This document shows positions 25,612 to 46,549 of a stretch of DNA of 64,000 nt, piece after piece; positions within the stretch are counted from its first letter, which is position 1, and each line of letters starts with the position of its first letter. The notes beneath the pieces were generated by a model. It saw only the letters and a program-made list of their open reading frames with translations, had not been told where the DNA came from and did no database searches. Position numbers and translations under genes: made by a program. The DNA comes from a virus (lineage: Duplodnaviria > Caudoviricetes), in the IMG/VR virus record IMGVR_UViG_3300042352_000969, positions 1 to 64,000 of that record. The stretch is one strand, 5' to 3'.

Positions 25612-26391
25612 ATGTCAAAGTCACTGTATAGTTTCAATATTTTTAAAACAGCAGAAGTCGAAGAGGACAAGACTGAAACGGTTACAAATGAACAAGGCGA
25701 ACAGGTCGTTCGTACTTACAAGGAAAAAGTTAAGAAACAAATTCCAATAGAAATTCACATTCTTCAGCCAAATAGAAAACAAATGCAAGAAGCTGACATG
25801 GAATTCAGTATTGAAATGAGCCGATGCATCCGAAATGGAATTTTAACAAAGGCGATGTTGCTAAATAAGTATAGTGATACTGGTGGTTTGATCAGCGACA
25901 ATGACGCGAAGATAATGGTTTCTGCCGCTGGAGAAATTGGAGATCTACAAAGTAGACTAACTATTCTTAATCTAAAACCAGAATCGGAACGTGACGAAGA
26001 TTACAAGCTAAAGATTGAAAAAGTAACTTCTGAAATTCTTCAACGTCGTAAGACTCTTATTGAAAAAGAAACGAGTTATATGACTTTGTTTAATCATACT
26101 GCCGACATTAAAGCTCAAAATAGAGCTATTCTTTGGTATGTACTAAGTCTAACTCAATTCAAGGATAATAGTAAAAAGAGTCCTGAATATGAATGGCTAT
26201 TTCCTGGTAAGACATTTGATATTAAAGAATCTGTCATGTTTGATTATGAAGAAAACAAGAATGAAATTTATGAAAAATGCTATAGTAAACTAGCTAGTGT
26301 TATTAGTTATTGGTTCTTTACCAGCAATACAGAAAAGGAAGAATTCGATAGAATCATTGGAGAAATAGATGGAACAGTCCCAACAGAGTAA
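25612..26391 (+). CDS. Probable tail assembly chaperone
   Basis: Acidic helical protein two genes upstream of the tape measure gene, which is the canonical chaperone position. Confidence 0.45.
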   Translation: MSKSLYSFNIFKTAEVEEDKTETVTNEQGEQVVRTYKEKVKKQIPIEIHILQPNRKQMQEADMEFSIEMSRCIRNGILTKAMLLNKYSDTGGLISDNDAKIMVSAAGEIGDLQSRLTILNLKPESERDEDYKLKIEKVTSEILQRRKTLIEKETSYMTLFNHTADIKAQNRAILWYVLSLTQFKDNSKKSPEYEWLFPGKTFDIKESVMFDYEENKNEIYEKCYSKLASVISYWFFTSNTEKEEFDRIIGEIDGTVPTE

Positions 26392-27364
26392 ATATAAAAA
26401 AGCTTTTAGGGATATAAAAAATGGATTCTCTGAGATTAAGGTTTTAGAGAATCTTTTTTATTTAAAGCATTTGTCTTTGGAAGATCAAGTCGATATTGAT
26501 CAAATTTATGATGTCTATTTTGATCAAGCTAAAAAACGCGGCGTTCCTACGAATAGCGAAACTTTAGAGCGGTTGGTTGACGAAAAACAATGGTCAAAGA
26601 AACAAGAATCTTTAATAACACAAGAACAAGATTTAATAGAAAACTTCAATAAACAGAAAAAAGCTCTTTATTTAAAATCAGAAATAATGAGAGTAAATGC
26701 GGACATCGAGTCGGCGCAAAAACGTTTAAACGATTTAAAAAATACAAGATCATCGTTCTTTCAAAGAACCGCCGAAAGTTATGCCGAAGAAAGAGTTAAT
26801 GATTATTACATATTAAAATGTTTATATAAAGATAAAAAGTTAAGTGAAGAAGCTTTTGAAGAAGATGAGTTCGATAATATTGATTCGGAAACTCTCACTT
26901 GTATTATAAAACAATACTCAGAGGTCTATAAAAACATAAACGACAACACGATTCAACATTTAATTTTGCAAGATTTTTTTAATTTGTATATGCCGTTTGC
27001 TGAAAATCCTACTGAATTCTTCGGTAAATGTGTGTGCGAGCTTACTTATAATCAAGTAAAATTACTTATTTATGCTCGATTTTTTAAGAACGTTTTTCAG
27101 CAAAATGATAAAATGCCTCAAGATATTAAAGACGATCCCGATAAAATCATTGATTATGTGAACGCCAATGAAAACGCCAAGAAAACAATTGAAAAAAAGA
27201 ACAACAAAGAAAATCAAGCTAGTTCAATAGTTGGTGCAACATCAGAAGACCTTGAATATATAGGATTAAAGGCCAAAGGTCAAAAGACTTTATCTTTAGC
27301 AGATGAAGCTAAAAAGAAAGGCGGCTCATTGAGTATGGACGATATGATGAAAATATTCGGTTAA
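26369..27364 (+). CDS. Probable tail assembly chaperone (second)
   Basis: Coiled-coil, charged protein immediately upstream of the tape measure gene; overlaps the previous ORF by 23 nt. Confidence 0.45.
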   Translation: MEQSQQSKYKKAFRDIKNGFSEIKVLENLFYLKHLSLEDQVDIDQIYDVYFDQAKKRGVPTNSETLERLVDEKQWSKKQESLITQEQDLIENFNKQKKALYLKSEIMRVNADIESAQKRLNDLKNTRSSFFQRTAESYAEERVNDYYILKCLYKDKKLSEEAFEEDEFDNIDSETLTCIIKQYSEVYKNINDNTIQHLILQDFFNLYMPFAENPTEFFGKCVCELTYNQVKLLIYARFFKNVFQQNDKMPQDIKDDPDKIIDYVNANENAKKTIEKKNNKENQASSIVGATSEDLEYIGLKAKGQKTLSLADEAKKKGGSLSMDDMMKIFG

Positions 27365-27392: not shown

Positions 27393-30300
27393 ATGGCCGT
27401 TCAAATCAATGTCGCCGCCAATCAAGCAGCATTAACAGCTTCTATTCAAGCTGGTGTTCAAGCGTACAATCAAAGATTCGCTCAGAACAATCCGATTAAT
27501 TTAAGTATTAATCAACGAGCTTTCTCTCAGCCGCTTGGAAGAATGACTGGTGACGTTAAGGATTTTGAAGCGGCCCTTGCTGCTTCTAATGCTCGCGTTA
27601 TTGCGTTCGGAGCTTCGACTGCCGTTCTTGGCGGTGTTATTCGTAGTTTTAAAGAATTAGCTAATGTTACTATCGATGTTGAAAAGAATCTTGCTGATAT
27701 TAATCGTGTATTCGGATTAACTACTAGTCAATTACAAAAATTTAGTACAGATTTATTTAGTGTTGGTAAACAAACGGCTTCTTCATTTGATGATGCATCT
27801 AAAGCTGCTCTTGAATTCTCTCGTCAAGGTTTAAAAGCTGAAGAAGTTTTGATAAGAACAAAAGACGCATTAACTTTAGCAAGAGTCGCTGGAATTAGTA
27901 CTGCAAATTCTGTTGATGCTTTAACTTCTACTATAAACGGTTTTGCTGCAACTGGAGTAACAACGACTCAAATATTAAACAAGCTTGTAGCTGTCGAACA
28001 AGATTTCGCAGTTGGCGCAGGAGACTTGGCTGAAGCGTTATCTCGTACAGGTCAAGCGGCGCAAGAAGCGGGAGTTAGCTTGGATCAATTAAATGCATTG
28101 GTAACAGCCGCTCAACAAAGTACAGCAAGAGGCGGCGCAGTTATTGGTAACGCATTAAAAACAATTTTTACTCGTTTACAACGTACAGAAACTCTTGACC
28201 AATTAGAAGCTTTCAATATAGCTGTAAGAGATGTACAGGGAAATACTTTACCAGCAGTCTCTATTCTACAAAATTTTGCAGGTGCTTATAAAGGTTTAGC
28301 TGACGCTCAAAGAGCGCAGTTATCTGAACAAGTCGCTGGTGTTTATCAGGTTAACATTCTTAAAGCTATTGTAGGTGATTTGAATAAATCTCAAGGCGTG
28401 TATGCTGGAGCTTTACAAAGAGGCGCATCAGCAACAAATGAAGCTGAAGTCGCTACTGCAAAACTAAATCAAACTCTCGACGCTTTATTAAAGCAAACCG
28501 CCACTTCTACACAACAACTAGCAAATAATATTGGTAAAGTAACATTTGAACCATTGGCTAGATATGGTACAGAACAATTGAAATCACTTGTCGAAAGTAT
28601 GAACGAAATTCTTGAAGGAGAAGGAGTTGGTTCTACTTTTGCTAATGGTTTATTAAAAGGAATTAGAAACGTAATAGCTGGTCCCGGCGCTATTGCCGCT
28701 TTCTTTACGCTTTTCAAGTTAATACAAAACTCTTTCACTTATCTTGCTCAGGCTTTGCCTCAGATCGCTGGTATCACGACAGAAACTCAAAATAGAAAAA
28801 ACATTGAACAATCTATTTTGCAAATCATGCAGCAACAAGGGCCGGTATCGCAAGCTCTTGCTGGCTCTATGGGCAATCAAGCTGCACAAGCTCAGTTGCT
28901 GCTTCAATTAGCAAGACAGCAAACAGCAGAATATCAAATACAGTCAACTCTTGCAAAACAATTAGCCACTCAATTAGCCGGTCAAGGTGTGCGAGTAAAA
29001 GGATCTGGCGGTTTGCAGGTCACTCGCGCAGGAGGTTATATTCCTGCTGCAACAAGAATGGCTGAAACAGTTGGCGCACAAGCTGGTGGTTATGCTCCCG
29101 GTAAAGTGGTGAAATCTCCTGTTGGTGGAGTAATGAATACTGCGGAAGATGTTAAATACGTTCCCGGTTTCGCTCAACCTTTTATTAATCCTCCTGCTGG
29201 ATCAAAAGCTGGCCGCACACATAGACAAAATGCTATAAGTAGAACGGGTGTTGATCCGTATACGGCTGGTGGATTTATACCTAATTTTGCAAAATTAGAT
29301 AAAAGAGATTATAGTTTTCAGAGGCCAAATGGAGGCGGTGTTGACAAAAAACAAAGAGCTTACAGTAATCATGCTATACAGATAAGAGAAATGAGTTCAT
29401 CGGATCTTGGTGCTGAAAAAAATTTAGATTTAGTAGGAAAAAATTTAGATTCTGGTTTTGACAATAAAACTAAAAAACCAAATGCTGTCTATGATTGGAT
29501 TTCTGGAAAAATAGATGTTATAAAATATTTGCAAAAAAAAGATGTTGATTCAGCCGTGTCTGCTATGTGGTTTGGTTCGATTCAAGGGGACCAAAATTTA
29601 ATTAAAACAGGTCAAAGTATTGGTTTAACAGATGCTGATTTAGAGGCAGTTTTTAAGACAACTACATCTAAAGTTGGATTTACGTTAAAAGACTTACAAA
29701 AGAAATATGAACTATCACAAAATGAAGAAGCCGCTAAAAACAATAAGCTTTTTAAATATAAAAGTGGCTCTAAAAAGGGTGAATTAATTACAACTTCGGA
29801 AGGTTTTAAAAGCTCTTTAAATGGAGATTATCAAAATTTTGTCGGAGACGCTTATGAAAAATTAATTTCAAAACTTCCAGGAATATCTGGAGCGTATACA
29901 ATAAGTGACAAATCAACGTCAGCCGCAGACTTAATACCAACGGGGCCGAATGCTATTCAAGGTATTGAAGTTAAAGCAGGTGAGGCGTATTTAAGTCAGT
30001 TGATTAAAAAAGCAGTTAGAATAAATATTAATGGCAGAGCGGAAGATGTGGCGCAAAAAGATTTAGACTTTGGAACTCTTCCTGTTTATCAACCATTTGG
30101 AAGCGAAATCGGAGCTTCTGCTAATGGTTTTATTCCTAATTTTGCTACACCAATGAGTACCGCAAGTATTCCTTGGTTCAAAAAATATTCCAGTAAATAT
30201 AAAAACACTACTGGTGATACAGACCTTTTCAAGATGGGAGATTTTCCTACTTATGGAAGAGGTTTAGATCACGAATATGCAAAAAAAGGAAATTCCGCTA

Positions 30301-33300
30301 TGCTTTCTTACTTACATGAAGATTTTGTAAGATCTGCATTGAATATAGCTTTAGCTTCAAAAAAAGTAATAAGACCCGCAGATGTTGGGTTTAAAGATAA
30401 ACCTGTAAGTGATATATCAAATGAGAATGATTTTGATTTATTATATAGAATAGCTGATGGTTCATACGATCTGATTGAGTTGAAACAAGATTTCAAAAAT
30501 ATTTCTGGATCTGTTACTGGATTCATGAATAAAAAACTTGAGAACGCTAAAAAAGAAAATCCAGAATTAGTTAAAAAAGTCCGTTCGATGATTGCTGTTT
30601 CAAACAGACCAAAATTTACTGATCCTACTGGTAGAAATGCTGGTGCAAATTTCAGTGAATTTGAAATGGCCGCCGCATCAATTGTTAAAGATAAGTATTC
30701 GAATGTTGATCCATCAACAAGCGCAAAACTCACAAAAGTTACAGATGGTTTATTAAGAAGATACGAAGCCAAGAAAAATACTACATCTGATGGTTTTATT
30801 CCTAATTTTGCTTCAATGATATCTTCTTCTATAAAAGGAAAAGGAAATATATCAGCCATAAAAACTGGCAAAAATAATTATGAAATCGAAGGCGTTGAAG
30901 TTGGTAAAAAGTTTAGAGGTCAAGGATTAGGTTCTCAATTATATGGAAGCATTGCTCAAAAAATTGGTTCCGGCAGTACTATTAAATCTGTATTATTACC
31001 ACAAGAACAAGCTTTAGCAGATTACGCGAGCGGCAAATCTATTCCTGCAAAAGCTATTTTTCCTCAATTATCTTGGGCAAAAATGGCTAAGAGTTCTAAG
31101 CTTTTAATCAATGGTAAGGAGATTGCAATGTCTGATTTTGAAAACGGAATAGCTGGTCACAAATACAATGCCGCAAAATTAGATATGGCATTGATTGAAT
31201 TAGTTAATTCTCATGCTTCAGGGTTTATTCCTAACTTTGCGTATAAACAAGCAGTAATGGGATTAGAAGAAAGCATGAGCGGAGAAAAAGCCGTATTCGA
31301 TAGTAAACCTTTCCCACACATTAGAAACAAGAGTCAGCCAACATTCAGTTCCGCAATATCTGATCATGGTGGTTTAAGTAATGCTTTGAGTGATTCAATG
31401 AGAGGGCAGAAGTCTGCTGGATTGATGAATAAAGGATATATTCCAAATTTTGCTAAAGGAAATAAAGGTAAAAAAAATCAACCTCGAAATACTCAATCAA
31501 GCTCCAATGCTGTTGAAGTAGAAAGTTATATTGAAAATTACGCTAAAGAAGCTCTAAGAGATATTAAAGGCACTTATAAATCGACAATTGATAAAATAAA
31601 ATTAATGTTTTCTAAGGTTGATTCATCAGTATCAAGTGTTGGAATAGATGCAGTAAAAAGTTTAAGAGAACAAACTTTTAAGCAAAGCAGAAATGCACCT
31701 GAAAAAAATACACCAAAATCGACATTTTCAGAAAATTTGTCGAAAGCTAGTACAGCTATAGCTATTGCTGGACCAACGTTGGCTGGATTTGCGGAGCAAG
31801 CTATGTATGGTAATAGAAAACGTACAGAGATGACTTCTGGAGAAAGAATGGGTCAGTCAGCTTTAAGCACTGGTTTAAGTTCTTTATCTACAGGCGCTGG
31901 TATTGGAGCTTCATTTGGTTTGCCTGGAGCAATTATTGGAGGAGCTATAGGAGGTTTAGTTGGTTTAACTTCAGCTCTGAATGCAACAATTTTAACTGCT
32001 GAAGAACTTGCGCAATTAAATGATGAGCAAGCACAAAAGTCGCAAGCTAGTATATCTGCTGCATCATCTTATATTGAAGCTCAAAAATCTTTATCAGAGA
32101 TGATTGTGAATGGTGCATCTTCAAATGATATCGAAAATGCTACTAAAAAATTATCTTCAGGATTTAATGAGATTGCTGATGTTAAATTACAAGAAATATT
32201 TAACTCGACAGGAGGAAATATTGCAGAAATGACAAAACAATTACAAGAATATACAAATGAAGCGACCTCTCGACAAGCATTTAAAAAAGCCATAACATCA
32301 AAAGGAACTGCTGAAGATTTAGCAAAAAATTTATCAATAGGATTAAATACAAAAGAAAAAAAACAAACATTTAGTTCTTTTTTAGCAGAAATTTCTATAC
32401 AAAAAGAGTTAGAAAAAGCTTCTTTAGAGGGTTACCAATACGATGAACAAACTTTATCGGCTCGTTTAAAGAATAATAAAGAAATTAAAAAAGCTCTTGA
32501 TGCCGTTTTGTTGTCTCAAGGAGTAACAAAAGAAAGTGAAAATTATGCTTCAGAATTTTCTGCGGCTATAGAATCATTTTTATCTAAAACTTTTGAAAAA
32601 GCTGAGTCTTTAATCAATAAATCTGATGTAGGCTCTAATGTGCAGAAAAATATAAATGATTTTAGACAAGCAGCTACTAAATCTTTTGGAGAAATTTTTA
32701 GAAAAATAGAAAGAGATTTAAATAAAAATCTTTTTGACATAGCTTTGTCTTTTGAGAAAGATTCAAGCACTAGAAGAATACAATCTTCTATTCTTGATTT
32801 TTCAACAAACTTTCAAGATAGTATAAATTCTTTTGTATCTAGTAACCTTCCAGACATTAGAAAATTTGATTTTGCCGCCGTAACCGCTGGTCAAAAAGCT
32901 CAAATGTTATTGCAAAAATCTCAACAAGATTATGACAAAGCTGTTGCAGAACAAGACAATGAAAAATCAAATTTTTCAACAAAAACCGCACAAGAACTTA
33001 GTGGATCTTTTAAATCTACTCTTTCAAATTCACAAGTAAACGCTGAATTTTATAAAAATAAAGTTTTGCCTCAAATTCAAAGCGGAAATTATAGTGGAGA
33101 TGTAAGTGGCATTATTAGCGGTTTAAAAGAAGCTCAATTGGCTAAAGTTAAAGAAACAAGATCTTCTGCTGAAGAAGCTTTAGGTAAACAAGGTTTTAAT
33201 TTTGGAAGCTCTGAAGAAATAAAAAAGACGTTAGGGGATTTAGCGAAGATTTTAGAAAATCCTGCTCTTTCAGAAGAAAAAAAATCAAAAATTATTGCAT

Positions 33301-35552
33301 ATCAACAAGAATTAATAAATCTTCAAGAAACCACTTTAAAATTCGCCAATCAAGCTGAAAAAGATAAGTTATCCGCTATTTTAACAGAAAAAGCTGAAGC
33401 TCAAACTTTATTTGAACAAAAACAAACCAACGCTAAAAAAGAATTAGAAATAAACAAACAATTAAACGAAGCAAGAATAGCTGTAGATAAAGATATAGCT
33501 ATTGAAAAAGCTAAGGTTGACAAGCAAATATTAATGCGCATGGAAAGTATGAAAGACGTTTCAGCGCAAATTGGTAACACTCTTGAAATAAGCAAAGCAA
33601 ATATAAATGCTTCCATCGCTGCTCTACAATCGAATCTTGAAGATTCAAGACAAAATTATGGAAAAGGTTCTTCACAAATTTTAGAAAGAAAGATTGATAT
33701 ACAGGATAGTATTCTTAAACAACAAAGAGAATTAGAAGATCAAACAATAAAATCAGAAATTCAACAAAGAATATTGCAAATAGCCGTAGAACAAGAAAAT
33801 ACTGCCGCGACTTTGGAATTGAATAAAACAATAATGACGTTGGTTGAATCTCAATTAAGAGGAGCGTTAGGCGGTTCACAAAAAATAGAAGAAATAAATG
33901 CTACTGCTAAAAGAATGGGATCTTTTGCTTCAGCTAATATTGATAAAAAATATGGCCCTGGAACATACGCTCAATATCAAGCTCTTCAACGCATACAAGA
34001 ATCCCGAACTGCATCTGCTTCAATTAATAGTAATTATAATACTAGCAATTTTGCGGCAAATATGGAAACCGCAGGTTTTAACAAAACCGATGAAAACGGT
34101 AACTTAATGATGTCTACACAAGAGCAAATTAATTTCTTATCAAAAGAAGAATTAAAAGCTAAAAAAGCTAATAATATAGTTCTAGAAGGAACCATTAAAC
34201 GCTATAAAGAAGAAATAAGAGTAAAAGAAAGATCTTTATCAATCACAAGAGATCAACTTGATAAATCAATTGCCTTAAAAAATGAAGAAAGTAGAGCGAT
34301 GGTTACTTTTGGTGGAAGATTATCTGCTGGTTTTGGTAAACTAAGCGATCAAGCCGATAATATAATTCATAACTTGGCGGAAGAGTTGCCTATGAAGTTT
34401 GCTGATAATATGTCTAGCGCACTAATGGAAGTAGCGAAAGGAACAAAGTCTATTGGTGACGCTTTCCAAGACATGGCTATAAACTTTGGTCAAATGATTA
34501 TGCAAGAAGTTATGAGAGCGGCTATAGCTAAAACATTAGGTAATATAGGAATTGGATCTTTATTCGGTCAAGCTGGAGGAAACGTTTCTGCAAGAGGAAT
34601 TGGTTATCAGCATGGAGGAGTAATCAGAGCTAATAACGGTCAATATGTAAGCGGAATGGGTTCTGGAGATAGATATCCAGCAATGCTTGAAAATGGTGAA
34701 TATGTTTTAAATAGAAAAGCAGTAAAAGAATTAGGTGGTAAAAAATCTTTAGATGCATTTAATTTTCAACAAGCTCCTCGTTTCGCTTCTGGTGGCAATG
34801 TTAATATGGAAGCTGAAATGGCTTTGAACAAAGATCAAGAAATGGATTATACAAAAAATCTATTATACAATAATTCTAACGTTGGAGCTATAAATGAAAA
34901 CGATTATACTGCTTATGCATATTCTGAAAATGATTATTTCAAGAAAATGAGAGAAAAGGCAATAGCAAATGAGCAAAAACGTGTTCAAGAAGCTTTCGCT
35001 AAAAAACAAAAAAATGCTCAGTTGATTAGTAGCATAGTTGGAGCAGCGGGATCTATGTTTTTAGCTGCTGGAATGAGTGGAATGGCAAAAGCAGCAGGAC
35101 CAACCAAACCTCCGGTTCCAATTTCAAAATTTCAAACCGCAGGATTTGCTCAAAGAGGTGGAATGATAGGATTTAATTCAGGTGGATTTGTTCCTCATGG
35201 ATCTAGATTATCAGATACTATTCCAGCTTTATTAACTGGCGGCGAATATGTAATGAATAATGCGGCAGTTAGAAAATATGGATTGGGCGAAATGAATGCC
35301 ATGAATGCTGGCGCAGTATCTAATAATAGCAATTCGAACGCTACAAATACAAATAATAACACTAACAATAACGCTACAAATATTTCTATCAACATTGATA
35401 GATCTGGTAAAGCTACTTATGGTTCTGATACAAGTAGTTATGAAAAGAATGACATTGCATTCTCTAAACAAATGGCAAAGCGTGTTGCTGATATAGCTAA
35501 AGGCGTAATTTCAGACGAAACAAGATACGGTGGTAAAATAAATCAAAGATAA
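27393..35552 (+). CDS. Tail tape measure protein (2719 aa) with an internal cassette array
   Basis: TP901-like N-terminal core (LADINRVFGLTTSQLQKFSTDLFSVGKQTASSFDDASKAALEFSRQGL...GAVIGNALKTIFTRL), long Ala/Gln helical regions, a Gly-rich hydrophobic segment (GAGIGASFGLPGAIIGGAIGG) and two C-terminal GG...D..PA.L..GEYV motifs. Confidence 0.92.
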   Translation: MAVQINVAANQAALTASIQAGVQAYNQRFAQNNPINLSINQRAFSQPLGRMTGDVKDFEAALAASNARVIAFGASTAVLGGVIRSFKELANVTIDVEKNLADINRVFGLTTSQLQKFSTDLFSVGKQTASSFDDASKAALEFSRQGLKAEEVLIRTKDALTLARVAGISTANSVDALTSTINGFAATGVTTTQILNKLVAVEQDFAVGAGDLAEALSRTGQAAQEAGVSLDQLNALVTAAQQSTARGGAVIGNALKTIFTRLQRTETLDQLEAFNIAVRDVQGNTLPAVSILQNFAGAYKGLADAQRAQLSEQVAGVYQVNILKAIVGDLNKSQGVYAGALQRGASATNEAEVATAKLNQTLDALLKQTATSTQQLANNIGKVTFEPLARYGTEQLKSLVESMNEILEGEGVGSTFANGLLKGIRNVIAGPGAIAAFFTLFKLIQNSFTYLAQALPQIAGITTETQNRKNIEQSILQIMQQQGPVSQALAGSMGNQAAQAQLLLQLARQQTAEYQIQSTLAKQLATQLAGQGVRVKGSGGLQVTRAGGYIPAATRMAETVGAQAGGYAPGKVVKSPVGGVMNTAEDVKYVPGFAQPFINPPAGSKAGRTHRQNAISRTGVDPYTAGGFIPNFAKLDKRDYSFQRPNGGGVDKKQRAYSNHAIQIREMSSSDLGAEKNLDLVGKNLDSGFDNKTKKPNAVYDWISGKIDVIKYLQKKDVDSAVSAMWFGSIQGDQNLIKTGQSIGLTDADLEAVFKTTTSKVGFTLKDLQKKYELSQNEEAAKNNKLFKYKSGSKKGELITTSEGFKSSLNGDYQNFVGDAYEKLISKLPGISGAYTISDKSTSAADLIPTGPNAIQGIEVKAGEAYLSQLIKKAVRININGRAEDVAQKDLDFGTLPVYQPFGSEIGASANGFIPNFATPMSTASIPWFKKYSSKYKNTTGDTDLFKMGDFPTYGRGLDHEYAKKGNSAMLSYLHEDFVRSALNIALASKKVIRPADVGFKDKPVSDISNENDFDLLYRIADGSYDLIELKQDFKNISGSVTGFMNKKLENAKKENPELVKKVRSMIAVSNRPKFTDPTGRNAGANFSEFEMAAASIVKDKYSNVDPSTSAKLTKVTDGLLRRYEAKKNTTSDGFIPNFASMISSSIKGKGNISAIKTGKNNYEIEGVEVGKKFRGQGLGSQLYGSIAQKIGSGSTIKSVLLPQEQALADYASGKSIPAKAIFPQLSWAKMAKSSKLLINGKEIAMSDFENGIAGHKYNAAKLDMALIELVNSHASGFIPNFAYKQAVMGLEESMSGEKAVFDSKPFPHIRNKSQPTFSSAISDHGGLSNALSDSMRGQKSAGLMNKGYIPNFAKGNKGKKNQPRNTQSSSNAVEVESYIENYAKEALRDIKGTYKSTIDKIKLMFSKVDSSVSSVGIDAVKSLREQTFKQSRNAPEKNTPKSTFSENLSKASTAIAIAGPTLAGFAEQAMYGNRKRTEMTSGERMGQSALSTGLSSLSTGAGIGASFGLPGAIIGGAIGGLVGLTSALNATILTAEELAQLNDEQAQKSQASISAASSYIEAQKSLSEMIVNGASSNDIENATKKLSSGFNEIADVKLQEIFNSTGGNIAEMTKQLQEYTNEATSRQAFKKAITSKGTAEDLAKNLSIGLNTKEKKQTFSSFLAEISIQKELEKASLEGYQYDEQTLSARLKNNKEIKKALDAVLLSQGVTKESENYASEFSAAIESFLSKTFEKAESLINKSDVGSNVQKNINDFRQAATKSFGEIFRKIERDLNKNLFDIALSFEKDSSTRRIQSSILDFSTNFQDSINSFVSSNLPDIRKFDFAAVTAGQKAQMLLQKSQQDYDKAVAEQDNEKSNFSTKTAQELSGSFKSTLSNSQVNAEFYKNKVLPQIQSGNYSGDVSGIISGLKEAQLAKVKETRSSAEEALGKQGFNFGSSEEIKKTLGDLAKILENPALSEEKKSKIIAYQQELINLQETTLKFANQAEKDKLSAILTEKAEAQTLFEQKQTNAKKELEINKQLNEARIAVDKDIAIEKAKVDKQILMRMESMKDVSAQIGNTLEISKANINASIAALQSNLEDSRQNYGKGSSQILERKIDIQDSILKQQRELEDQTIKSEIQQRILQIAVEQENTAATLELNKTIMTLVESQLRGALGGSQKIEEINATAKRMGSFASANIDKKYGPGTYAQYQALQRIQESRTASASINSNYNTSNFAANMETAGFNKTDENGNLMMSTQEQINFLSKEELKAKKANNIVLEGTIKRYKEEIRVKERSLSITRDQLDKSIALKNEESRAMVTFGGRLSAGFGKLSDQADNIIHNLAEELPMKFADNMSSALMEVAKGTKSIGDAFQDMAINFGQMIMQEVMRAAIAKTLGNIGIGSLFGQAGGNVSARGIGYQHGGVIRANNGQYVSGMGSGDRYPAMLENGEYVLNRKAVKELGGKKSLDAFNFQQAPRFASGGNVNMEAEMALNKDQEMDYTKNLLYNNSNVGAINENDYTAYAYSENDYFKKMREKAIANEQKRVQEAFAKKQKNAQLISSIVGAAGSMFLAAGMSGMAKAAGPTKPPVPISKFQTAGFAQRGGMIGFNSGGFVPHGSRLSDTIPALLTGGEYVMNNAAVRKYGLGEMNAMNAGAVSNNSNSNATNTNNNTNNNATNISINIDRSGKATYGSDTSSYEKNDIAFSKQMAKRVADIAKGVISDETRYGGKINQR

Positions 35553-39027: not shown

Positions 39028-40878
39028 ATGAGTTATTTAATATCAGGTTTAAATATAAAAAATATATCTGAGTATAATAGTTCGTCTTTATATTCTAAAT
39101 TTGATATAATCGATTATCAGTTAAATACAGGTATTTCTGTAATGCCTAATTATACAGGTTTTGGAATAACTGGTTTGACTACTTGGTTCAACAATGATAG
39201 TTTAAATAATTTTTTAACTGATACTAGTTTTAGAGTTACAGGTTGGTTGAATAATGTGTCTGGAAGTGGAAATTTATTTACTACAACTTCTGATGTTAAT
39301 AATCGTGGAAGAGTCGATTTTAACGAATCTTATATTACATTATCTGACTCACAAGTTTTAAGCGGTTCTGGTTTTAATTCAGATTCTAGAGTTTTATTAT
39401 TAGCTTTTGAAGTTTTGACTCCATCGAATATCACTGAACAAACAATTTGCAAATTTGGAACGGGGGATAATTATGGATTATTAAAAGTAAATGGTAAGGA
39501 CGAATTATTTTCAGCGAAATTTATATTAGATAATCAACAGTTCGATGCTATTTCTAGCATTTACGATGACAAGAATATTGTAACTTTGATTCAAAACTCT
39601 TCAGCTAACACTATAAAAATTAGACAAAATGGATATGAATTAGGAACATATTCGTCTTTTAATGATTATTGGAAATCCGGTGAATTAACTTTAGGATTAA
39701 ATCCTAACAATGTTGGCGTAAGATATCATGAAATAATTCATTTCACTGGCTCTTTAAATACTTCTCAAATAGATCAATATGAAAAATATTTATTTGAAAA
39801 GTATTTTAAAAACGAAGGTTTGTATTTTGCAAAAAATAATGTTCCAACTGGGTCTGATTATTCACCAATAACATATACTGGAAATAGTTATTGGACAAGA
39901 GATATAAATGATTTATTTTTTCTTTCTTATGGAAGTTCGGCTTCTTTTTCAGCAAAATTGTCTCCTTTAACATTTGGCGATGGATACAAGACAAATGTAA
40001 CTAATGGGATAAATACATTAAGCTCTAAATTTAATATTGTTTATGATGGCTTAACAGATTTACAAGCAAAAACTTTAATAACTTATTTTGAAAACACCCC
40101 ACAATCACAAAATAAGAGTGATTATGAAGGTTTTAAAGGAGTTGATTTAAATTTATTCACTCCTTACAAACAAGATTGCGAAACTTACTTTTTAAATATA
40201 AATCATTCTACTCCTTACAATGATATTAATAAAATTAATATAGAAGCGGAATCGTTTTATGAAAGTTGTTTAAATTATAAAGGAATGTATGTTTTGTTGG
40301 ACGAGAAGAGTATAAAAACATATACCGATACTACATTCGAATTTGCTTATAATGATGTGTTTTATTATCCATCAACAAATTTTTCTCAAAGAGGGTATTA
40401 TTTTTATACTGGACAGGCTAAAGGTGTGGCTCAAGGTTCGACTGGTCCTTTATTACCTCAAAACAGCCCAACAGGAGTAAACACTTATTTTACTAGAGAC
40501 TTTTATTTTAAACAAGATATTGAATATGATATTCAAGAAAATATAAGAATTAAATCAGTAGATTTTAAAAACTCTACAAAAGAGTATAGAAAAGATGGTG
40601 AGTATCCTAATATTTTTGAATTTGAAGTTAAATTAACAAAAAGATCAAATAAAGAAGCTTTAGCGATTTTAAAATTTTTAGATGATAAAGCGGGATTTAA
40701 AATTTTTAATTATACTTTGCCTCAACCGTATAATAAAACGATTCAAGTTTACTGTCCTGAATGGAATCATACTTATCAATTTTATGACAACAATAGTATA
40801 AATGCAAAATTTATTCAGTTTAATAATAAATTCTCAGCATCAACAGTTTTCAATTCATTAATAACTTTTACTTCATGA
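39028..40878 (+). CDS. Distal tail protein, lambda gpM-like (two gpM-like halves) with a lectin-like insertion
   Basis: FGDGYKTNVTNGINTLSSKFNIVYDGLTDLQAKTLITYFE and FEVKLTKRSNKEALAILKFLDDKAGFKIFNYTLPQPYNKTIQVYCPEWNHTY...INAKFIQ are gpM-like. Confidence 0.7.
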   Translation: MSYLISGLNIKNISEYNSSSLYSKFDIIDYQLNTGISVMPNYTGFGITGLTTWFNNDSLNNFLTDTSFRVTGWLNNVSGSGNLFTTTSDVNNRGRVDFNESYITLSDSQVLSGSGFNSDSRVLLLAFEVLTPSNITEQTICKFGTGDNYGLLKVNGKDELFSAKFILDNQQFDAISSIYDDKNIVTLIQNSSANTIKIRQNGYELGTYSSFNDYWKSGELTLGLNPNNVGVRYHEIIHFTGSLNTSQIDQYEKYLFEKYFKNEGLYFAKNNVPTGSDYSPITYTGNSYWTRDINDLFFLSYGSSASFSAKLSPLTFGDGYKTNVTNGINTLSSKFNIVYDGLTDLQAKTLITYFENTPQSQNKSDYEGFKGVDLNLFTPYKQDCETYFLNINHSTPYNDINKINIEAESFYESCLNYKGMYVLLDEKSIKTYTDTTFEFAYNDVFYYPSTNFSQRGYYFYTGQAKGVAQGSTGPLLPQNSPTGVNTYFTRDFYFKQDIEYDIQENIRIKSVDFKNSTKEYRKDGEYPNIFEFEVKLTKRSNKEALAILKFLDDKAGFKIFNYTLPQPYNKTIQVYCPEWNHTYQFYDNNSINAKFIQFNNKFSASTVFNSLITFTS

Positions 40879-42308
40879 GTACATATTTAACAGGTGTAAG
40901 CTTAGGACAAGTACCAACTGGATTTGGTGGTTATACTGGAGTAGTTATTCAAAATAGTGGTAATTTTCCAGTTCAGTATAAAATAAATATATCTAATACT
41001 ACTTTTGATGCTTCTGTAACTCCTACGACAGCCGCAGGTGGTTTGTTATATGACACTATATTTATATCTGATTCTTTAGATTATTTAGATCCAGATCAAA
41101 AACAAATAACAAAAATAATAAATTGTAATGAATCGGGATCTTTTTATATATTACACAGTCCATTTAGAACTTTTAATTTATCTACAGATAGATCACAAGG
41201 ACAAGAATACGCTACTGTAACAATTGATTCGCAATCGAATATTGGCGACTCAGATAGTAATTTAACTATTAATGTTACTGGAAATAGAATAACAGGATTT
41301 CCTATTCCTAAAAAATTGGGCAAATTTTATGCTGTAAAAAACTATTCAAAAATAGATGCAAGTCCAAGTTTAGCTTTTTATTGGTCTTGTATTAATAATT
41401 TAGATTATTATACAGGATTTAAGTTAGAATTGTCTACTGATTCGTCTTTCACTTCGCCTATTATTAACTATGAATATGTACAAGAAAATACAGATGGTGT
41501 GTTTCCTTTGTATGGAGGTTATGATGGTTTTAACAATGAAAACCATTCAGTTACAAAAACAAACTTATCTTTTAATCAAAATTATTACGCTAGAATTCAA
41601 GCAGTTAATGTGACTGGCGGTACTGGAGAATATACTTATGCTACTGGTTATGATTATGATTATCCTATATTAGATGATGCTACATATAGTGGAAATCATG
41701 CAAGCCCCGGTGAAAATTTAATAATAACTCCAACTATATTATATTTAAATTACTTATCTAATACTGAAAGTGATTTCGATTTATTTGAATCTCTTTACAA
41801 GCTAAATGGAGATTCAGCAGATTTTAGAAAATACTCTGGAATAAATGTAAAATTTTCTCCAAGTGATAACTCAATTGGTAATGCAATATATAAATCTTCC
41901 GACGTTTCTAAAGGAGCTATTAATTTTATACCCAGAAGTAATATACAAATGGCTTTTAATACAGGAGTTGGTGGTATATTTAGATTAGAATTAGAATTTG
42001 AAAATGTTAATTTATATGGTTATGGCGGTCAAGGGGTTCAGGTAAGGGGTGATGGAGATTTTTCAGCAGCAACAAATGGTGGTCCAATATTTAAATTTGA
42101 TGATGTAAAATACAATGATACATCTGATAGTTTAAACACAAGAACTATACAGTATTATGTATATAAAGATTTAGATAGCCTTTTTTATGCGGGTATTGGT
42201 GGTGGACAAGGTTTGTTATTAACCGACGAAACTAATAAAGGTTTTTCAATACCAATAAATGGATCAGAAATAAAAACAATAAACCACATTAACTTAAAAA
42301 ATCCATAA
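40875..42308 (+). CDS. Tail-associated protein with Ig/fibronectin type III-like domain
   Basis: LAFYWS...GFKLELSTDSSF...LSFNQNYYARIQAVNVTGGTGEY is an FN3-like signature. Confidence 0.5.
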   Translation: MSTYLTGVSLGQVPTGFGGYTGVVIQNSGNFPVQYKINISNTTFDASVTPTTAAGGLLYDTIFISDSLDYLDPDQKQITKIINCNESGSFYILHSPFRTFNLSTDRSQGQEYATVTIDSQSNIGDSDSNLTINVTGNRITGFPIPKKLGKFYAVKNYSKIDASPSLAFYWSCINNLDYYTGFKLELSTDSSFTSPIINYEYVQENTDGVFPLYGGYDGFNNENHSVTKTNLSFNQNYYARIQAVNVTGGTGEYTYATGYDYDYPILDDATYSGNHASPGENLIITPTILYLNYLSNTESDFDLFESLYKLNGDSADFRKYSGINVKFSPSDNSIGNAIYKSSDVSKGAINFIPRSNIQMAFNTGVGGIFRLELEFENVNLYGYGGQGVQVRGDGDFSAATNGGPIFKFDDVKYNDTSDSLNTRTIQYYVYKDLDSLFYAGIGGGQGLLLTDETNKGFSIPINGSEIKTINHINLKNP

Positions 42309-42309
42309 T

Positions 42310-43746
42310 ATGGGACAATATAAAATAGGAACTATTAATTACCTGTCTGAAGATAAGGCTGTTATATATGATGATAATATAACTACTGCTATAAATATAT
42401 ATAAAGTTGATCCTGATTCCAAACCAGTCAACGATTCTGTATCTAGTTCACAGACCGCTACTCTAGTACCACCAGTAAATTCAACGACTATAAATGCAAA
42501 TGGACAAACCGTAACTCCTTTTTCTCAAGGGGTAAGCGTTAATGGTGTTGGGTCAAATGCAGACTCTGGAAAATTAACATCTATAGCGTCAAGTACATTA
42601 CCAAATATATACTTTAATATAAGAAAAAATTCATTTGATAGCAAAAGTTTATATTTTAGATTTAAAACAAGCGATATATCTGGTTCAGCGGGCGCACAAA
42701 CAAATACTTGGGCATCAGATACTAATATATTATCTGGTTTGTCGTTAACTGGAGATGCTAATTGTTTAAGAGTTACACAAGCTTATGGTCAAAAATTTTA
42801 CGAATTAGCTTCAACAAAAAGTATTGGCATATCTAATTTTTCTTTTAATGTGCCAAAAAATCCAAGTTATGCTTTTTTAGTTTATGCTTTAGCTAACGAA
42901 AGCACAACAAGCGCTTTATTTTCACATTCTAATCAAATTCATAAATTTCAAGCGGCTTCAGATAGTGGTGCAACAATATATAATAATAGTCATAAGGCTG
43001 CAAAAAGCGGTCAGCCACAAAGAAATTATAACGTTTTTTCTTTATCTCCATTGTTATCTTCACAGTTCGTCTCTGAATATCAACAAAGAAACGGTTTAGA
43101 TACAGTAAATATAAAAAATACTTATTTTTCTAGTGACTTTGACGTTTTTCAAAATACCACTGGTGTTATAACAGATTCTGGAGTAAACAATGTTAATCCG
43201 CCGCCTAAATTTATTTCTAATAAATTTTTTAATTTATGCAATACGCCTAATTCTTTAGCGTCTCCAACAGCAACAAATACTCCATTTATAATTAATCAAG
43301 GAGCTTCGGATATACCTTTAAATACTTTTTCTTTATTTTTTGTCGAAATGTATAGTTATTTAGAATTGCCGTCTTCAAATCAACAAAATGCTGCTTATAA
43401 TATTTTGAATGTAATTACTAAAGTAAATGGTTTAATATCTTATACGGCAAAAATATTAATAAAACCAGATATAAATTATTCTAATAATATAAATTGCAAC
43501 ATTTCAATTGGAAATAATCCAGGTTCTGGTGGAGTAAAAATGTTTTTGTTTGATTATTTATATGGAACTTCAAGAGATGTTTCTTCAATGACTCAAGATA
43601 GAAATCTTATTTTAGAATCGTTAGGTTATGATAATAGAAAAGTTTTATTAAAAAGTTCAAGCGATTTACAAATGACTAACTCAACTTCATCTTTAAGATT
43701 TCCAGCGAATCTATCGCATCCTTTTTTGAACATGTATTTTAGTTAA
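42310..43746 (+). CDS. Hypothetical virion structural protein
   Basis: Ser/Thr/Asn-rich ORF within the tail-tip operon; LYFRFKTSDI...NTWASDT start and FLFDYLYG...LILESLGYD end loosely resemble a LamG-like fold. Confidence 0.35.
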   Translation: MGQYKIGTINYLSEDKAVIYDDNITTAINIYKVDPDSKPVNDSVSSSQTATLVPPVNSTTINANGQTVTPFSQGVSVNGVGSNADSGKLTSIASSTLPNIYFNIRKNSFDSKSLYFRFKTSDISGSAGAQTNTWASDTNILSGLSLTGDANCLRVTQAYGQKFYELASTKSIGISNFSFNVPKNPSYAFLVYALANESTTSALFSHSNQIHKFQAASDSGATIYNNSHKAAKSGQPQRNYNVFSLSPLLSSQFVSEYQQRNGLDTVNIKNTYFSSDFDVFQNTTGVITDSGVNNVNPPPKFISNKFFNLCNTPNSLASPTATNTPFIINQGASDIPLNTFSLFFVEMYSYLELPSSNQQNAAYNILNVITKVNGLISYTAKILIKPDINYSNNINCNISIGNNPGSGGVKMFLFDYLYGTSRDVSSMTQDRNLILESLGYDNRKVLLKSSSDLQMTNSTSSLRFPANLSHPFLNMYFS

Positions 43747-43748
43747 TA

Positions 43749-43754
43749 GTGTAA
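43749..43754 (+). promoter_or_regulatory. GTGTAA motif upstream of the gpL-like gene
   Basis: GTGTAA 29 nt before ATG 43784. Confidence 0.35.
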
Positions 43755-43783
43755 ATTTATTTTTAATTCTTTATTATATTAAA

Positions 43784-45658
43784 ATGTCAAATTTATTTTT
43801 ATTGGATAATACGAGTGTTTTAGATCTTTTTGAAATAAAGCTAAATGATTTTGATGGATATTTTAGGTTTCATGGATCTAAAAACTTAAAATCAAACATT
43901 ATTTTTAAAGAAAAAGAGTATATTTTTATTCCTTGCGAGATATCTAATTTGGAATATTCTTCAGAAGCGAAGCAAAATAGACCTACTTTATCTATAGCAA
44001 ATGTAAATAATTATATCAGTAATTTGATAAAAGACAGAAAAGATCTTATAGGTAAGCGTTTTTATAGAAAAAAAATACTAACAAAAGATTTAGATGATGT
44101 TAATTTTGGTGGATCTAATAAAAACACTTTAGGAGTTTCTTCTTTTTCATCTTTTATATCTGTTGATACGTTTGTTATTCAGAAAAAGAATTCTGAAAAT
44201 AAAGATAAAGTAGAATTTCAATTGGCTAATATTTTGGATTTGGATGGTCAAACGGTTCCGTCAAGAAAGGTTTATAATGATATTTGCCAGTGGCAATATA
44301 GAGGATATGGATGTAATTATGGAAAATTATCTGATTACGATGGCCCAACAATACCAGTCAAAATAACAAATTTTACCACTCTCGCTTCTGTAATAAGCGC
44401 ATCTTCTAATGATTTACTTACTACAAATTTATCGTTATGGTTAAATAATACTACTGGAAAAACGTATGGTTCTACTACTACTGAGGTAGCAGCATCTTCT
44501 GGGAAAAAATATTTATTTCAAAAATTAACGGCTTGGGCAGACAGTTCGACTACTATAAATACTAGCGGAACTGCTAAAACTATAACTCTGACGGGTAATT
44601 TAAAAAAATTTACAAATTCAGGAAGATTAAATAATCAAGAAGGAGCATTCTTATTAGCCGAAGATTCATTATTAATTGATTTTGAATTTTTTGGAGCTAG
44701 TAATGACTTGACTATTTTTTATGTTTCTGAGGCCACTAATAAAAGATTCGATACAGCTAGAAAAAACGCGCCGAATGGTGGGTATATAGCTAGAGGATTA
44801 ACTTCAAGTACTGGAGATTCAAATAAAAATTTTTTACTTGGTTATCATGGAGGTTTTTCGGATGTTGTTTTTCCTTCAAATAGTTTTAAGAATGATAAAA
44901 AAATTTGGGCTTATTATGATTTATCTCCCAAAATATACGCTTATTCAAATAAAGATGGTGGAAACAAGATATTATATAAAAATGGTTCAACTTTATTTTC
45001 AAGAACTGGGAGTTTAGATTTGAACGCTTTAAAGTTAGGTTTTAATAAAATTAATGATGAAGTTAGTGATATTGTCATTTATGAAGTGATTATTTTTAAT
45101 AAAGTATTAAACGACGCTGCAATAAAATCTGTTTTTTCATATCTATCTATTAAGTATAATATACAAATATCTAATTATTACCAAAATCTTGAAACTATTA
45201 AAGGGTCAACAATTTTTAGTCAATCAGCTTTTACTCAAGAAGGAAATTTAGGGGTTACAGTTGCAGATGAAAATAATAAACTATTTTTAAAATATCCAGA
45301 TAATATTTATTCTAATTTTGAATCTTATGGTTTAACCAGTTTAAGTTATAAAGGCGATTACAATAGCAATACAGTTTATTCACAGGGAGATTTTGTAAAA
45401 ATAGATGAAGAAATTGATTTTGATTTTAATGAAACAGTAATTCAAAAAAATTCTATTTTGCCTTCTCGTTTTTTTGTTTGTTTAAGCAATGAGGGAGTAT
45501 CAGCTAAACATCCTATGGATTATACTAATATATGGAAAGAGGATAAATGTTCTAGAAATTTAAATGGTTGTTCTTTGAGATTTAATGATATTAAAAATAT
45601 TCCTTTTGGTTCGTTTCCTGGAACTTTAAGTTATGATTATAAATTACCAGGATCTTAA
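43784..45658 (+). CDS. Minor tail tip protein, lambda gpL-like, with a large insertion
   Basis: LDLFEI...YIFIPCEISNLEYSSEAKQNRPTLSIANV...DLIGKRFYRKK, VEFQLANILD, CQWQYRGYGC and CSRNLNGCSLRF...PFGSFPG (four Cys, as in Fe-S-binding gpL). Confidence 0.85.
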   Translation: MSNLFLLDNTSVLDLFEIKLNDFDGYFRFHGSKNLKSNIIFKEKEYIFIPCEISNLEYSSEAKQNRPTLSIANVNNYISNLIKDRKDLIGKRFYRKKILTKDLDDVNFGGSNKNTLGVSSFSSFISVDTFVIQKKNSENKDKVEFQLANILDLDGQTVPSRKVYNDICQWQYRGYGCNYGKLSDYDGPTIPVKITNFTTLASVISASSNDLLTTNLSLWLNNTTGKTYGSTTTEVAASSGKKYLFQKLTAWADSSTTINTSGTAKTITLTGNLKKFTNSGRLNNQEGAFLLAEDSLLIDFEFFGASNDLTIFYVSEATNKRFDTARKNAPNGGYIARGLTSSTGDSNKNFLLGYHGGFSDVVFPSNSFKNDKKIWAYYDLSPKIYAYSNKDGGNKILYKNGSTLFSRTGSLDLNALKLGFNKINDEVSDIVIYEVIIFNKVLNDAAIKSVFSYLSIKYNIQISNYYQNLETIKGSTIFSQSAFTQEGNLGVTVADENNKLFLKYPDNIYSNFESYGLTSLSYKGDYNSNTVYSQGDFVKIDEEIDFDFNETVIQKNSILPSRFFVCLSNEGVSAKHPMDYTNIWKEDKCSRNLNGCSLRFNDIKNIPFGSFPGTLSYDYKLPGS

Positions 45659-45971
45659 TAAAAATCTTTTAGAAGAACTAAGAAAAGAAAGTTTATCTTC
45701 AGATGATGAAATCTGCGGTTTTTTATTAAAAAAAAATAATGATTATTATTTTAAAAAAATGGTAAACGTTCATCCAAATCCTAAAAGTTTTTTTCTTATA
45801 TCTCCAAAAGAAAGCGATTATTCTGATGAATGTATCGTTTTTCATAGTCATCCAGAACATGTAAAAGAAAAAGGATTTTCTAAATGGGACTTAGAAAATC
45901 AAAAATATTTTTATTTGCCTATGCTTTTATACAGTGTAAATAATGATGAGTTTTATTACAAAAACATATGA
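45633..45971 (+). CDS. Tail assembly protein gpK-like, JAB/MPN domain only
   Basis: EICGFLL...VFHSHP...FSKWD (E, HxH, S, D of MPN+); no NlpC/P60 domain. Confidence 0.8.
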   Translation: MIINYQDLNKNLLEELRKESLSSDDEICGFLLKKNNDYYFKKMVNVHPNPKSFFLISPKESDYSDECIVFHSHPEHVKEKGFSKWDLENQKYFYLPMLLYSVNNDEFYYKNI

Positions 45972-46540: not shown

Positions 46541-46549
46541 CAAAACATT

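Follow-up and report, generated by a model that had tools for sequence, protein, structure and literature searches.

A repeated GFIPNFA heptapeptide delimits exchangeable, putatively enzymatic cassettes in a phage tape measure protein

The DNA examined here, hereafter the window, is a stretch of 64,000 nucleotides (nt) from a tailed phage (Caudoviricetes; IMG/VR record IMGVR_UViG_3300042352_000969, positions 1 to 64,000), and it contains the gene of a tape measure protein (TMP) whose middle part is divided by copies of the heptapeptide GFIPNFA into segments, the cassettes, that differ between related phages. PhageMin_Tail (PF10145) matches amino acids (aa) 123-316 of the product with 96.9 bits, against a Pfam cut-off of 33.2 (E 1.9e-27), seven PHROG TMP families are matched by the open reading frame (ORF) at 27393-35552 (best E 6e-47), and the region of about aa 56-467 is 25-28% identical to annotated TMPs of Lactococcus phage 949 and of Bacillus phages, including those of Bacillus megaterium. 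Because of these matches, and of the tail-tip genes that stand downstream in lambda order, we assign the ORF as the tape measure gene of a siphovirus, uncultured and from fresh water, whose tail tip is of the lambda type; an earlier note on this DNA had already read it as a TMP, and the domain, the PHROG families and the position upstream of the tail-tip genes bear this out. The identical 8.2-kb gene is spanned, with zero differences, by single contigs from lake-water runs of 2020 and 2024, and since these contigs come from independent runs, the cassette array is not an assembly chimera. At least 14 metagenome runs of 2020 and 2024, from lake water or fresh water, contain the exact TMP sequence, and some of these runs are possibly the window's own source. 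The parts of the gene are as follows:

27393-35552, plus strand: TMP gene P0001, 2719 aa, 8160 nt, a single ORF (Pfam and PHROG)
27393-29030, plus strand: conserved N-terminal TMP core (N-core), aa 1-546, from nt conservation across IMG/VR loci
29031-29270, plus strand: degenerate motif GGYIPAA (aa 547) and a 73-aa Gly/Pro-rich 'pre-unit', together aa 547-626 (six-frame scan)
29271-29291, plus strand: motif copy 1, GFIPNFA, aa 627-633, position fixed in the family (six-frame scan)
29292-30125, plus strand: cassette 1, cluster K8, 278 aa, a helical N-terminal part and a PD-(D/E)xK-like core
30126-30146, plus strand: motif copy 2, GFIPNFA, aa 912 (six-frame scan)
30147-30791, plus strand: cassette 2, cluster K0, 215 aa, a near-universal PD-(D/E)xK-like domain
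30792-30812, plus strand: motif copy 3, GFIPNFA, aa 1134 (six-frame scan)
30813-31220, plus strand: cassette 3, cluster K2, 136 aa, mini-GNAT acetyltransferase-like (Pfam Acetyltransf_1)
31221-31241, plus strand: motif copy 4, GFIPNFA, aa 1277 (six-frame scan)
31242-31433, plus strand: cassette 4, cluster K1, 64 aa, a universal, highly conserved terminal unit
31434-31454, plus strand: motif copy 5, GYIPNFA, aa 1348 (six-frame scan)
31455-35552, plus strand: post-array part, helix-rich, with hydrophobic Gly-rich segments and C-terminal GG-x-[IV] units (sequence scans)

All six motif copies, the degenerate one included, share the TMP frame, as found by translation of the ORF and by a six-frame regular-expression scan. 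Both confirm the positions given in the earlier note, and the segments between the copies measure exactly 73, 278, 215, 136 and 64 aa. Elsewhere in the window the six frames hold one loosely similar word only, GYIPKF at nt 51790. From rough residue frequencies, about 3e-6 exact heptapeptides would be expected in the TMP, against the four exact copies and one F-to-Y copy observed; four identical heptapeptides in 2719 residues are therefore not due to chance. Copies 2 and 3 have an identical 23-nt word in common. In both AlphaFold2 models that were made, of cassettes 1 and 2, the cores fold and the flanking motifs are disordered, with a predicted local distance difference test score (pLDDT) below 50, and the motifs therefore behave like linkers that lie outside the folds. 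The motif DNA was also considered as a frameshift or slippery site, and this was rejected, since it lacks an X XXY YYZ pattern and all relatives keep the single ORF intact.

The pre-unit (aa 554-626) has a Gly plus Pro fraction of 0.26, and GYIP[AN]AT is conserved at aa 548 in homologues. It is 30% identical to cassette 4 and shares with the TMP C-terminus the short word VMN..A..V.KY (repeat D6); the C-terminal GG-x-[IV] units are GGVIRA at aa 2408 and GGFVPH at aa 2597. Because of this weak resemblance and the shared word, the motif may derive from a generic GG-x-[IV] repeat element of the TMP. The hydrophobic segments of the protein are at aa 426-445, 1501-1536 and 2542-2562.

A homologue search with TMP aa 540-1360 as the query gave 259 matches, and the counts that follow are for the 120 listed of these 259. 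All listed homologues are giant TMPs of 1500-3300 aa, with a query coverage of 11% to 100% and patchy identity. Three to nine copies of G[FY][IVL]PNF[A/x] were found in 120/120 of them, the first at a fixed site (aa 627) after the conserved core, and the same layout was seen at 43 of 44 IMG/VR loci. The homologues hold 396 exact copies and 239 with one mismatch, and junctions outside the regular expression still read GFMPNFA, GSIPNFA, GFTPNFA or GNIPNFA; the motif delimits every module throughout the TMP family. The residues G..PNF are essentially invariant among about 600 copies, in proteins with N-cores as far apart as 77% nt identity or less, and information content falls to background right outside the seven residues. 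At the DNA level, the same seven residues are spelled by 34 distinct words that differ at third codon positions, which argues that the peptide is under purifying selection of its own. The commonest motif 21-mer nevertheless makes up 26% of the copies, versus 3.4% expected from codon usage (39 distinct TMP genes, with shared ancestry uncorrected). Taken at face value, these patterns indicate that the motif is constrained both as a peptide and as a handle in the DNA.

Cassettes were clustered by all-against-all BLAST of about 470 database cassettes together with those of the IMG/VR loci. They fall into about 41 clusters, a few of them compound, where a degenerate motif was missed; profile-profile comparison (hhalign), which covers 472 of the 820 cluster pairs, links K5 with K8, K15 with K19, K18 with K39, K2 with K22 and a few others. 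The 120 proteins display 71 architectures, that of the window being K8-K0-K2-K1. The order is a variable slot 1, an optional K14, K0, then zero to five variable cassettes in variable order, and finally K1. Slot 1 is filled by at least seven unrelated families, whereas K0 is present in 106/120 proteins and is replaced in one subclade by the unrelated K12. In this subclade (loci L028, L029, L037, L039 and L042), the N-core identity is 77%, the hhalign probability of K12 against K0 is 0.7%, and the unknown cassettes K27, K13 and K40 are added as well. Array length ranges from 395 to 1077 aa, and the rest of the TMP does not shorten to make up for it (array versus post-array length, Spearman +0.42, n=26).

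The N-core is 77-96% identical in nt among IMG/VR loci, irrespective of cassette content. Loci L001, L004-L009 and L036 have an N-core 95-96% identical to that of the window, an unrelated cassette 1 and a K0 too diverged to align. Conversely, the K0 of the window is 90-93% identical to that of loci whose N-core is only 83-86% identical. Each cassette has its own nearest relatives, K0 in L012, L017 and L020, K8 in L035 (98% identical) and K2 in L001 and L003 (99% identical). The ends of the megablast alignments fall within 6 nt of a 21-nt motif word in 56 of 59 cases, versus about 6% expected by chance, and two of the three exceptions are at or near contig ends. In TMP nt, these ends lie at 1896-1901 (copy 1), 2733/2734 (copy 2), 3394, 3419 and 3420 (copy 3), 3828, 3846 and 3848 (copy 4) and 4060-4065 (copy 5). 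Moreover, relatives that co-occur in the same lake runs diverge from the window at motifs, with loose ends at 30126, 30155 and 31220. Since alignment ends and lake-run divergence points both coincide with motif words, the alignments indicate that cassettes are swapped, inserted and deleted between co-circulating phages by crossovers in the 21-nt words. The earlier note had proposed a swappable array, with a recombination handle as one of three possible roles of the motif, and had set the comparison of homologues between GFIPNFA copies as the test; the segments vary rather than being invariant, near-identical N-cores carry unrelated cassettes, and the homology breakpoints fall inside the motif-coding words, so that both proposals are well supported.

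The post-array part and the TMP C-terminus are also mosaic between loci (95-99% identical in L043, not alignable in L005), and no delimiter motif is visible in that region. In one run, a joint between 29288 and 30126 (side 30, depth 7) was considered as a cassette-1 deletion variant and rejected; the simplest reading is that a relative's short contig aligns to two motif copies. Contigs from RNA libraries cover the N-core and K1 only, at 90-99% identity, and therefore come from relatives and are uninformative on expression of the cassettes of this gene.

As to what the cassettes are, cassettes 1 and 2 are probably PD-(D/E)xK nuclease domains, with activity predicted from conserved residues. In K8, E196, D220, E233-x-K235 and K247 are invariant in 12 sequences; in K0 (alignment A2; 27 sequences, down to 30% identity), E65, D104 and K120 are invariant and position 118 is E or D. 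In the AlphaFold2 model of cassette 2 (pLDDT 64.5; predicted template-modelling score, pTM, 0.71), E65 lies on a long helix, D104 opens a strand, and the strand after it carries E-x-K; a helix and a further strand follow, an order of elements consistent with that of PD-(D/E)xK folds. The model of cassette 1 (pLDDT 73.8) has a helical insert and then the same core order. These mixed alpha/beta domains, not plain helical sequence, agree with the globular segments that the earlier note had expected. A search with the same models by Foldseek, which it had suggested, gave nothing at E<=0.001 against PDB (cassettes 1 and 2) or BFVD (cassette 1), the fold matches being weak and mixed. Likewise, no significant sequence-profile match of cassettes 1 and 2 to a PD-(D/E)xK member family was obtained in Pfam (best, SduA_C, E 0.12), the K0 profile (A2) found no nuclease in PDB, only FliG at E 0.4, and for cassette 1 the leads in the ESM Atlas, R.HinP1I and SmaI, scored 0.80-0.83, which is chance level. 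The ratio of nonsynonymous to synonymous substitution rates (dN/dS) is about 0.2 for K0, compared with 0.07 for the N-core.

Cassette 3 resembles a GNAT acetyltransferase. Its motif A, VEVGKKFRGQGLG, aligns to positions 55-89 of Acetyltransf_1 and to motif A of YjdJ; Acetyltransf_1 scores 22.8 bits for the isolated cassette, against a cut-off of 20.7, and 17.9 bits within the whole protein, and the best PDB match is the minimal GNAT YjdJ (E 0.039). Because only about 17 residues precede motif A, cassette 3 would at best be a minimal GNAT of the YjdJ/Acetyltransf_CG type. K2 accounts for 34 of the pooled cassettes, always after K0, with a dN/dS of 0.04-0.06. Cassette 4, in contrast to the variable units, is the last cassette in nearly all homologues, as K1; it is 60-88% identical across the family (A7), has a dN/dS of 0.08-0.11, is among the most conserved parts of the TMP and contains the words LEESMSG, PFPHIRN and ADHGG. 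No relative of K1 was found in PDB, Pfam or the ESM Atlas, and a complex prediction with three copies of motif-K1-motif returned no answer (score 0.00), which is neutral on linker-mediated trimerisation. The enzyme-like features announced by the earlier note are thus present as E...D...ExK signatures in K8 and K0 and as GNAT motif A in K2. Its view that the motif brackets effector domains suits cassettes 1-3, but not the pre-unit and cassette 4, which are Gly/Pro-rich non-enzymes; and its description of the segments as Lys-rich relative to the flanks is right for the N-core (Lys plus Arg fraction 0.08, versus 0.12-0.16 in the cassettes) but not for the post-array part (0.13).

Among the cassettes of relatives, K4, a slot-1 alternative absent from the window, has a profile that matches thermonuclease at E 4e-8 over 116 positions, and a single sequence reaches 19.6 bits with Pfam SNase, against a cut-off of 21. 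In K4 (A4), D14/D16/T17, R31, D36, E39, Y74 and R76 are invariant, within DGDT and R..(V)DAPE, which we take to be the active-site residues of staphylococcal nuclease. K4 is clearly a homologue of staphylococcal nuclease by these criteria of sequence, with its activity predicted. K26 has a Walker-A-like start and is P-loop-like. The profiles of K3 (A5) and K6 (A6) found nothing in PDB, most other clusters have no family match in Pfam or PHROGs (26 representative cassettes), PADLOC returned nothing meaningful for 10 cassettes, and PHROGs gave nothing for the cassettes or for most neighbouring genes; about 30 cassette clusters of the relatives are without an assigned function. Overall, the enzyme assignments have moderate support; we regard those of GNAT and SNase as good and those of PD-(D/E)xK as probable.

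Lambda gpH and T5 Pb2 are ejected and mediate the passage of DNA across the inner membrane. TMP ejection and a role in DNA passage are also stated in the SNIPE preprint (10.1101/2025.11.03.685801). In the TMP described here, the array sits between the conserved N-core and the long helical C-terminal part, which is predicted to be membrane-active. On balance we hold it probable, if by no wide measure, that this TMP is a polymorphic, polyvalent cargo carrier, whose motif-delimited enzyme cassettes are delivered to the host and whose linker serves processing or hand-off. The TMP would precede the DNA out of the tail and pass into the envelope or cytoplasm of the host, and because TMPs exit first and the cassettes lie in the head-proximal half of the protein, these would be delivered just before the genome. 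Once there, they may act on nucleic acids and proteins of the host or of competitors, in takeover, anti-defence or exclusion of rivals. The invariance of the peptide suggests a conserved partner, for which the GFIPNFA linker would most likely be a processing or hand-off site that frees each domain or lets it refold independently, perhaps, and speculatively, served by the gpK-like JAB protein encoded downstream or by Asn-based self-cleavage at P-N-F, and the same words would supply the microhomology that makes the array evolvable. The fast turnover of optional cassettes on near-identical backbones is the signature of a conflict system.

Several points weigh against delivery of effectors as just described. 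Injection at infection, which we infer from the biology of TMPs, and proteolytic release at the motif, both put forward in the earlier note, are proposals, and no dedicated protease domain was found in this TMP. Three copies of folded domains of 215-278 aa would barely fit the lumen of a siphovirus tube. The K0 profile, run against 1.84 billion representatives, retrieved 29 proteins only, all TMPs or TMP fragments, and no free-standing homologue of K8 was found outside TMPs; such confinement fits long-resident parts of a machinery as well as captured effectors. The near-universal presence of K0 and K1 suggests a core role in infection rather than arms-race cargo, and the dN/dS of K8, about 0.6, indicates either relaxed or diversifying selection. 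A stronger form of the proposal, which we think rather unlikely, makes GFIPNFA a dedicated processing site and the TMP a MARTX-like polyprotein that releases exchangeable enzymes seconds before the genome arrives. Cleavage would then be autocatalytic, for example by Asn-driven chemistry at P-N-F, or the work of a peptidase in the virion, for which the gpK-like JAB protein is one candidate, and both routes are speculative; the heptapeptide would be release signal and recombination standard at once, in a community-wide trade of modules, and the released set would comprise nucleases, acetyltransferases and some 30 still-unknown enzymes.

The main rival to effector delivery holds that the cassettes are infection machinery, for holding or processing the DNA end, for piloting or for work on the envelope, with the linkers as packing joints or as binding sites for a chaperone or the tube lumen; we rate this as possible, on the unlikely side. 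K0 and K1, near-universal and confined to the TMP family, are what such machinery would look like, and slot 1 is always filled, by at least three unrelated nuclease-like clusters (K4, SNase; K8 and K5, PD-(D/E)xK-like), as if a single required activity had been replaced non-homologously. The array also lies in the head-proximal part of the TMP, by general knowledge near the DNA end of lambda-type tails, and its motifs are disordered linkers in the models. However, the very fast turnover on near-identical backbones, with up to five optional cassettes or none, is usual in conflict systems and unusual in essential parts. Nor is it obvious what GNAT and P-loop modules would do in the piloting of DNA, and the uncompensated array length also speaks against this rival. 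A mixed case, in which slot 1, K0 and K1 are core machinery and the optional cassettes are effectors, is plausible.

That GFIPNFA matters as DNA only, a 21-nt recombination site encoding a merely tolerated linker, we consider improbable. The coincidence of breakpoints with the motif word, the 7-8 times over-representation of the commonest word relative to codon usage and the 23 identical nt in copies 2 and 3 would all follow from it, but selection on DNA alone would tolerate non-synonymous changes equally, whereas one heptapeptide is encoded by 34 DNA words that vary at third positions, and G, P, N and F stay invariant in about 600 copies despite the divergence of the N-cores. Very improbable, finally, is the view of the cassettes as inert spacer or ruler material, or as decayed insertions devoid of activity: most clusters have no detectable family and the fold matches of K0 and K8 are weak, as it would predict, yet K2, K1 and K0 have dN/dS values of 0.04-0.2, the catalytic constellations are invariant, the models give globular folds and K4 keeps all the active-site residues of staphylococcal nuclease.

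Compared with 50,697 GenBank phage records, the array gave no DNA or protein match. Neither GFIPNFA nor its shorter forms GFIPNF and FIPNFA occurred as strings in the searchable literature, where no paper on motif-delimited TMP arrays was found either. TMPs with embedded enzymes are familiar, among them those with the Rpf-like motif of TM4, the lysozyme or M23 peptidase of staphylococcal and lactococcal phages, and T5 Pb2. Embedded enzymatic domains in TMPs were reportedly described by Piuri and Hatfull in 2006 and by Boulanger in 2008. These proteins resemble the one described here in having non-ruler domains that act upon ejection of the TMP, and the PF10145 N-core also occurs in TMPs of cultured phages; they differ in that they carry single peptidoglycan hydrolase motifs, instead of two to eight cassettes, nuclease-like, acetyltransferase-like or of unassigned type, that vary in combination and are each bracketed by an invariant heptapeptide. 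None of these TMPs is known to have a delimited array of several enzymes.

Polyvalent proteins combine several unrelated enzymatic domains, GNAT and nuclease domains among them, in mosaic architectures, and are predicted to accompany the DNA on delivery (Iyer et al., 2017; PMC5512222). They are thought to be packaged in the head and have MuF, MPTase or ParB-type modules at their centre, with no described delimiter motif, and the word 'tape' is absent from that paper (PMC5512222). This TMP similarly has at least two unrelated enzyme-like domains and variable architectures, but its carrier is a tail protein with a delimiter. Pfam and PHROG searches of the TMP and of the 26 representative cassettes gave none of the signature modules of polyvalent proteins, such as MuF, MPTase/Zn-peptidase, DdrB-ParB and ArdC-N.

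In polymorphic toxins, such as CdiA with VENN, Rhs with PxxxxDPxGL, and MafB, a short invariant peptide at the border of constant and variable parts is the recombination point for toxin swaps, and the Rhs demarcation motif is also a cleavage site. An invariant motif at constant/variable junctions is the recombination point here too, by functional analogy only. Those toxins are bacterial, with one C-terminal toxin and an immunity gene, and are delivered by type V, VI or VII secretion systems (T5SS, T6SS, T7SS), whereas here the motif is repeated three to nine times, the cassettes are internal to a phage structural protein, and no immunity gene is adjacent. MARTX toxins are linear mosaic arrays of effectors in a large translocating carrier, freed by cleavage of linkers and reshuffled by recombination. 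The likeness, a multi-effector array in a carrier, is again one of functional analogy only: MARTX proteins have their own cysteine protease domain, which cuts after Leu, while the carrier here is a tail TMP in which no protease domain was found.

Closer in scaffold are the Sle1-type effectors of actinobacterial contractile injection systems (CIS), built on a TMP-derived scaffold in a tail-like tube (Nagakubo et al., 2026; PMC13277306). They share an exchangeable functional domain that differs between species, and differ in that this domain is single and C-terminal, the system is a bacterial CIS, and no repeated delimiter is reported (PMC13277306). A systematic survey of TMPs saw a mosaic signal but could not confirm a genuine recent case (PMC10684548). 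On the evidence of the alignments presented here, this TMP family is such a case, with recent and genuine mosaicism at the level of domains. If the proposed delivery is true, the family would represent a natural plug-and-play scaffold with a standard linker, in which dozens of domains can be inserted into a phage structural protein, and the concept of injected effectors would extend from phage heads (polyvalent proteins, T4 Alt, the N4 virion RNA polymerase, vRNAP) to the tail lumen. The roughly 30 uncharacterised clusters would then be strong candidates for new anti-defence or takeover activities, and the delimiter of 7 aa or 21 nt a concrete means of searching metagenomes and of engineering phages that carry cargo.

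Downstream of the TMP gene, the tail-tip genes M/L/K/I/J stand in lambda order:

39028-49777, plus strand: lambda-like tail-tip module (Pfam)
39028-40878, plus strand: gpM-like (Phage_min_tail, E 7e-15)
43784-45658, plus strand: gpL-like (Phage_tail_L, E 2e-34)
45633-45971, plus strand: gpK-like JAB protein, 112 aa (Prok-JAB, E 1e-4, just below the Pfam cut-off)
45968-46540, plus strand: gpI-like ubiquitin-fold protein, 190 aa (ThiS, E 5e-4, just below the Pfam cut-off)
46550-49777, plus strand: gpJ-like (Phage-tail_3, E 7e-13, and FNIII-A_GpJ)

The ORF of the gpK-like JAB metallopeptidase overlaps the start of the gpI-like ORF (45633-46540). The gpK-like protein would be a virion-associated peptidase and, speculatively, a candidate partner of the GFIPNFA linkers. 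The ORF that follows the TMP gene (303 aa) starts 8 nt past the TMP stop, at a conserved position. Directly 5' of the TMP gene are two acidic ORFs, 25612-26391 (259 aa, P0154) and 26369-27364 (331 aa, P0155), which overlap by 23 nt; they occupy the position of the gpG/gpGT tail assembly chaperones but far exceed those in size. Neither matches a family, and no canonical slippery heptamer is seen by eye in the 23-nt overlap. The host is possibly a Flavobacterium: a 7-kb contig with an N-core 98% identical to that of the window is binned in an uncultured Flavobacterium metagenome-assembled genome, a weak hint.

Upstream of the tail genes are two giant ORFs, 438-8537 (2699 aa) and 8570-16225 (2551 aa). 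The latter has no Pfam match; the former has at its end an intramolecular chaperone domain of the Peptidase_S74 type (E 4.6e-10) and is therefore predicted to be a very long, self-cleaving tail fibre. A 151-aa ORF at 21216-21671 matches a PHROG kinase family (E 2.9e-22). Finally, a local peak in G+C content at 52001-54000 (0.42, versus about 0.30 around it) lies within the 1674-aa ORF at 49786-54810, in a region with open frames of more than 400 aa also in other frames and on the opposite strand, and points to an insert, repetitive or of odd composition, in a protein of the tail tip or of a fibre.

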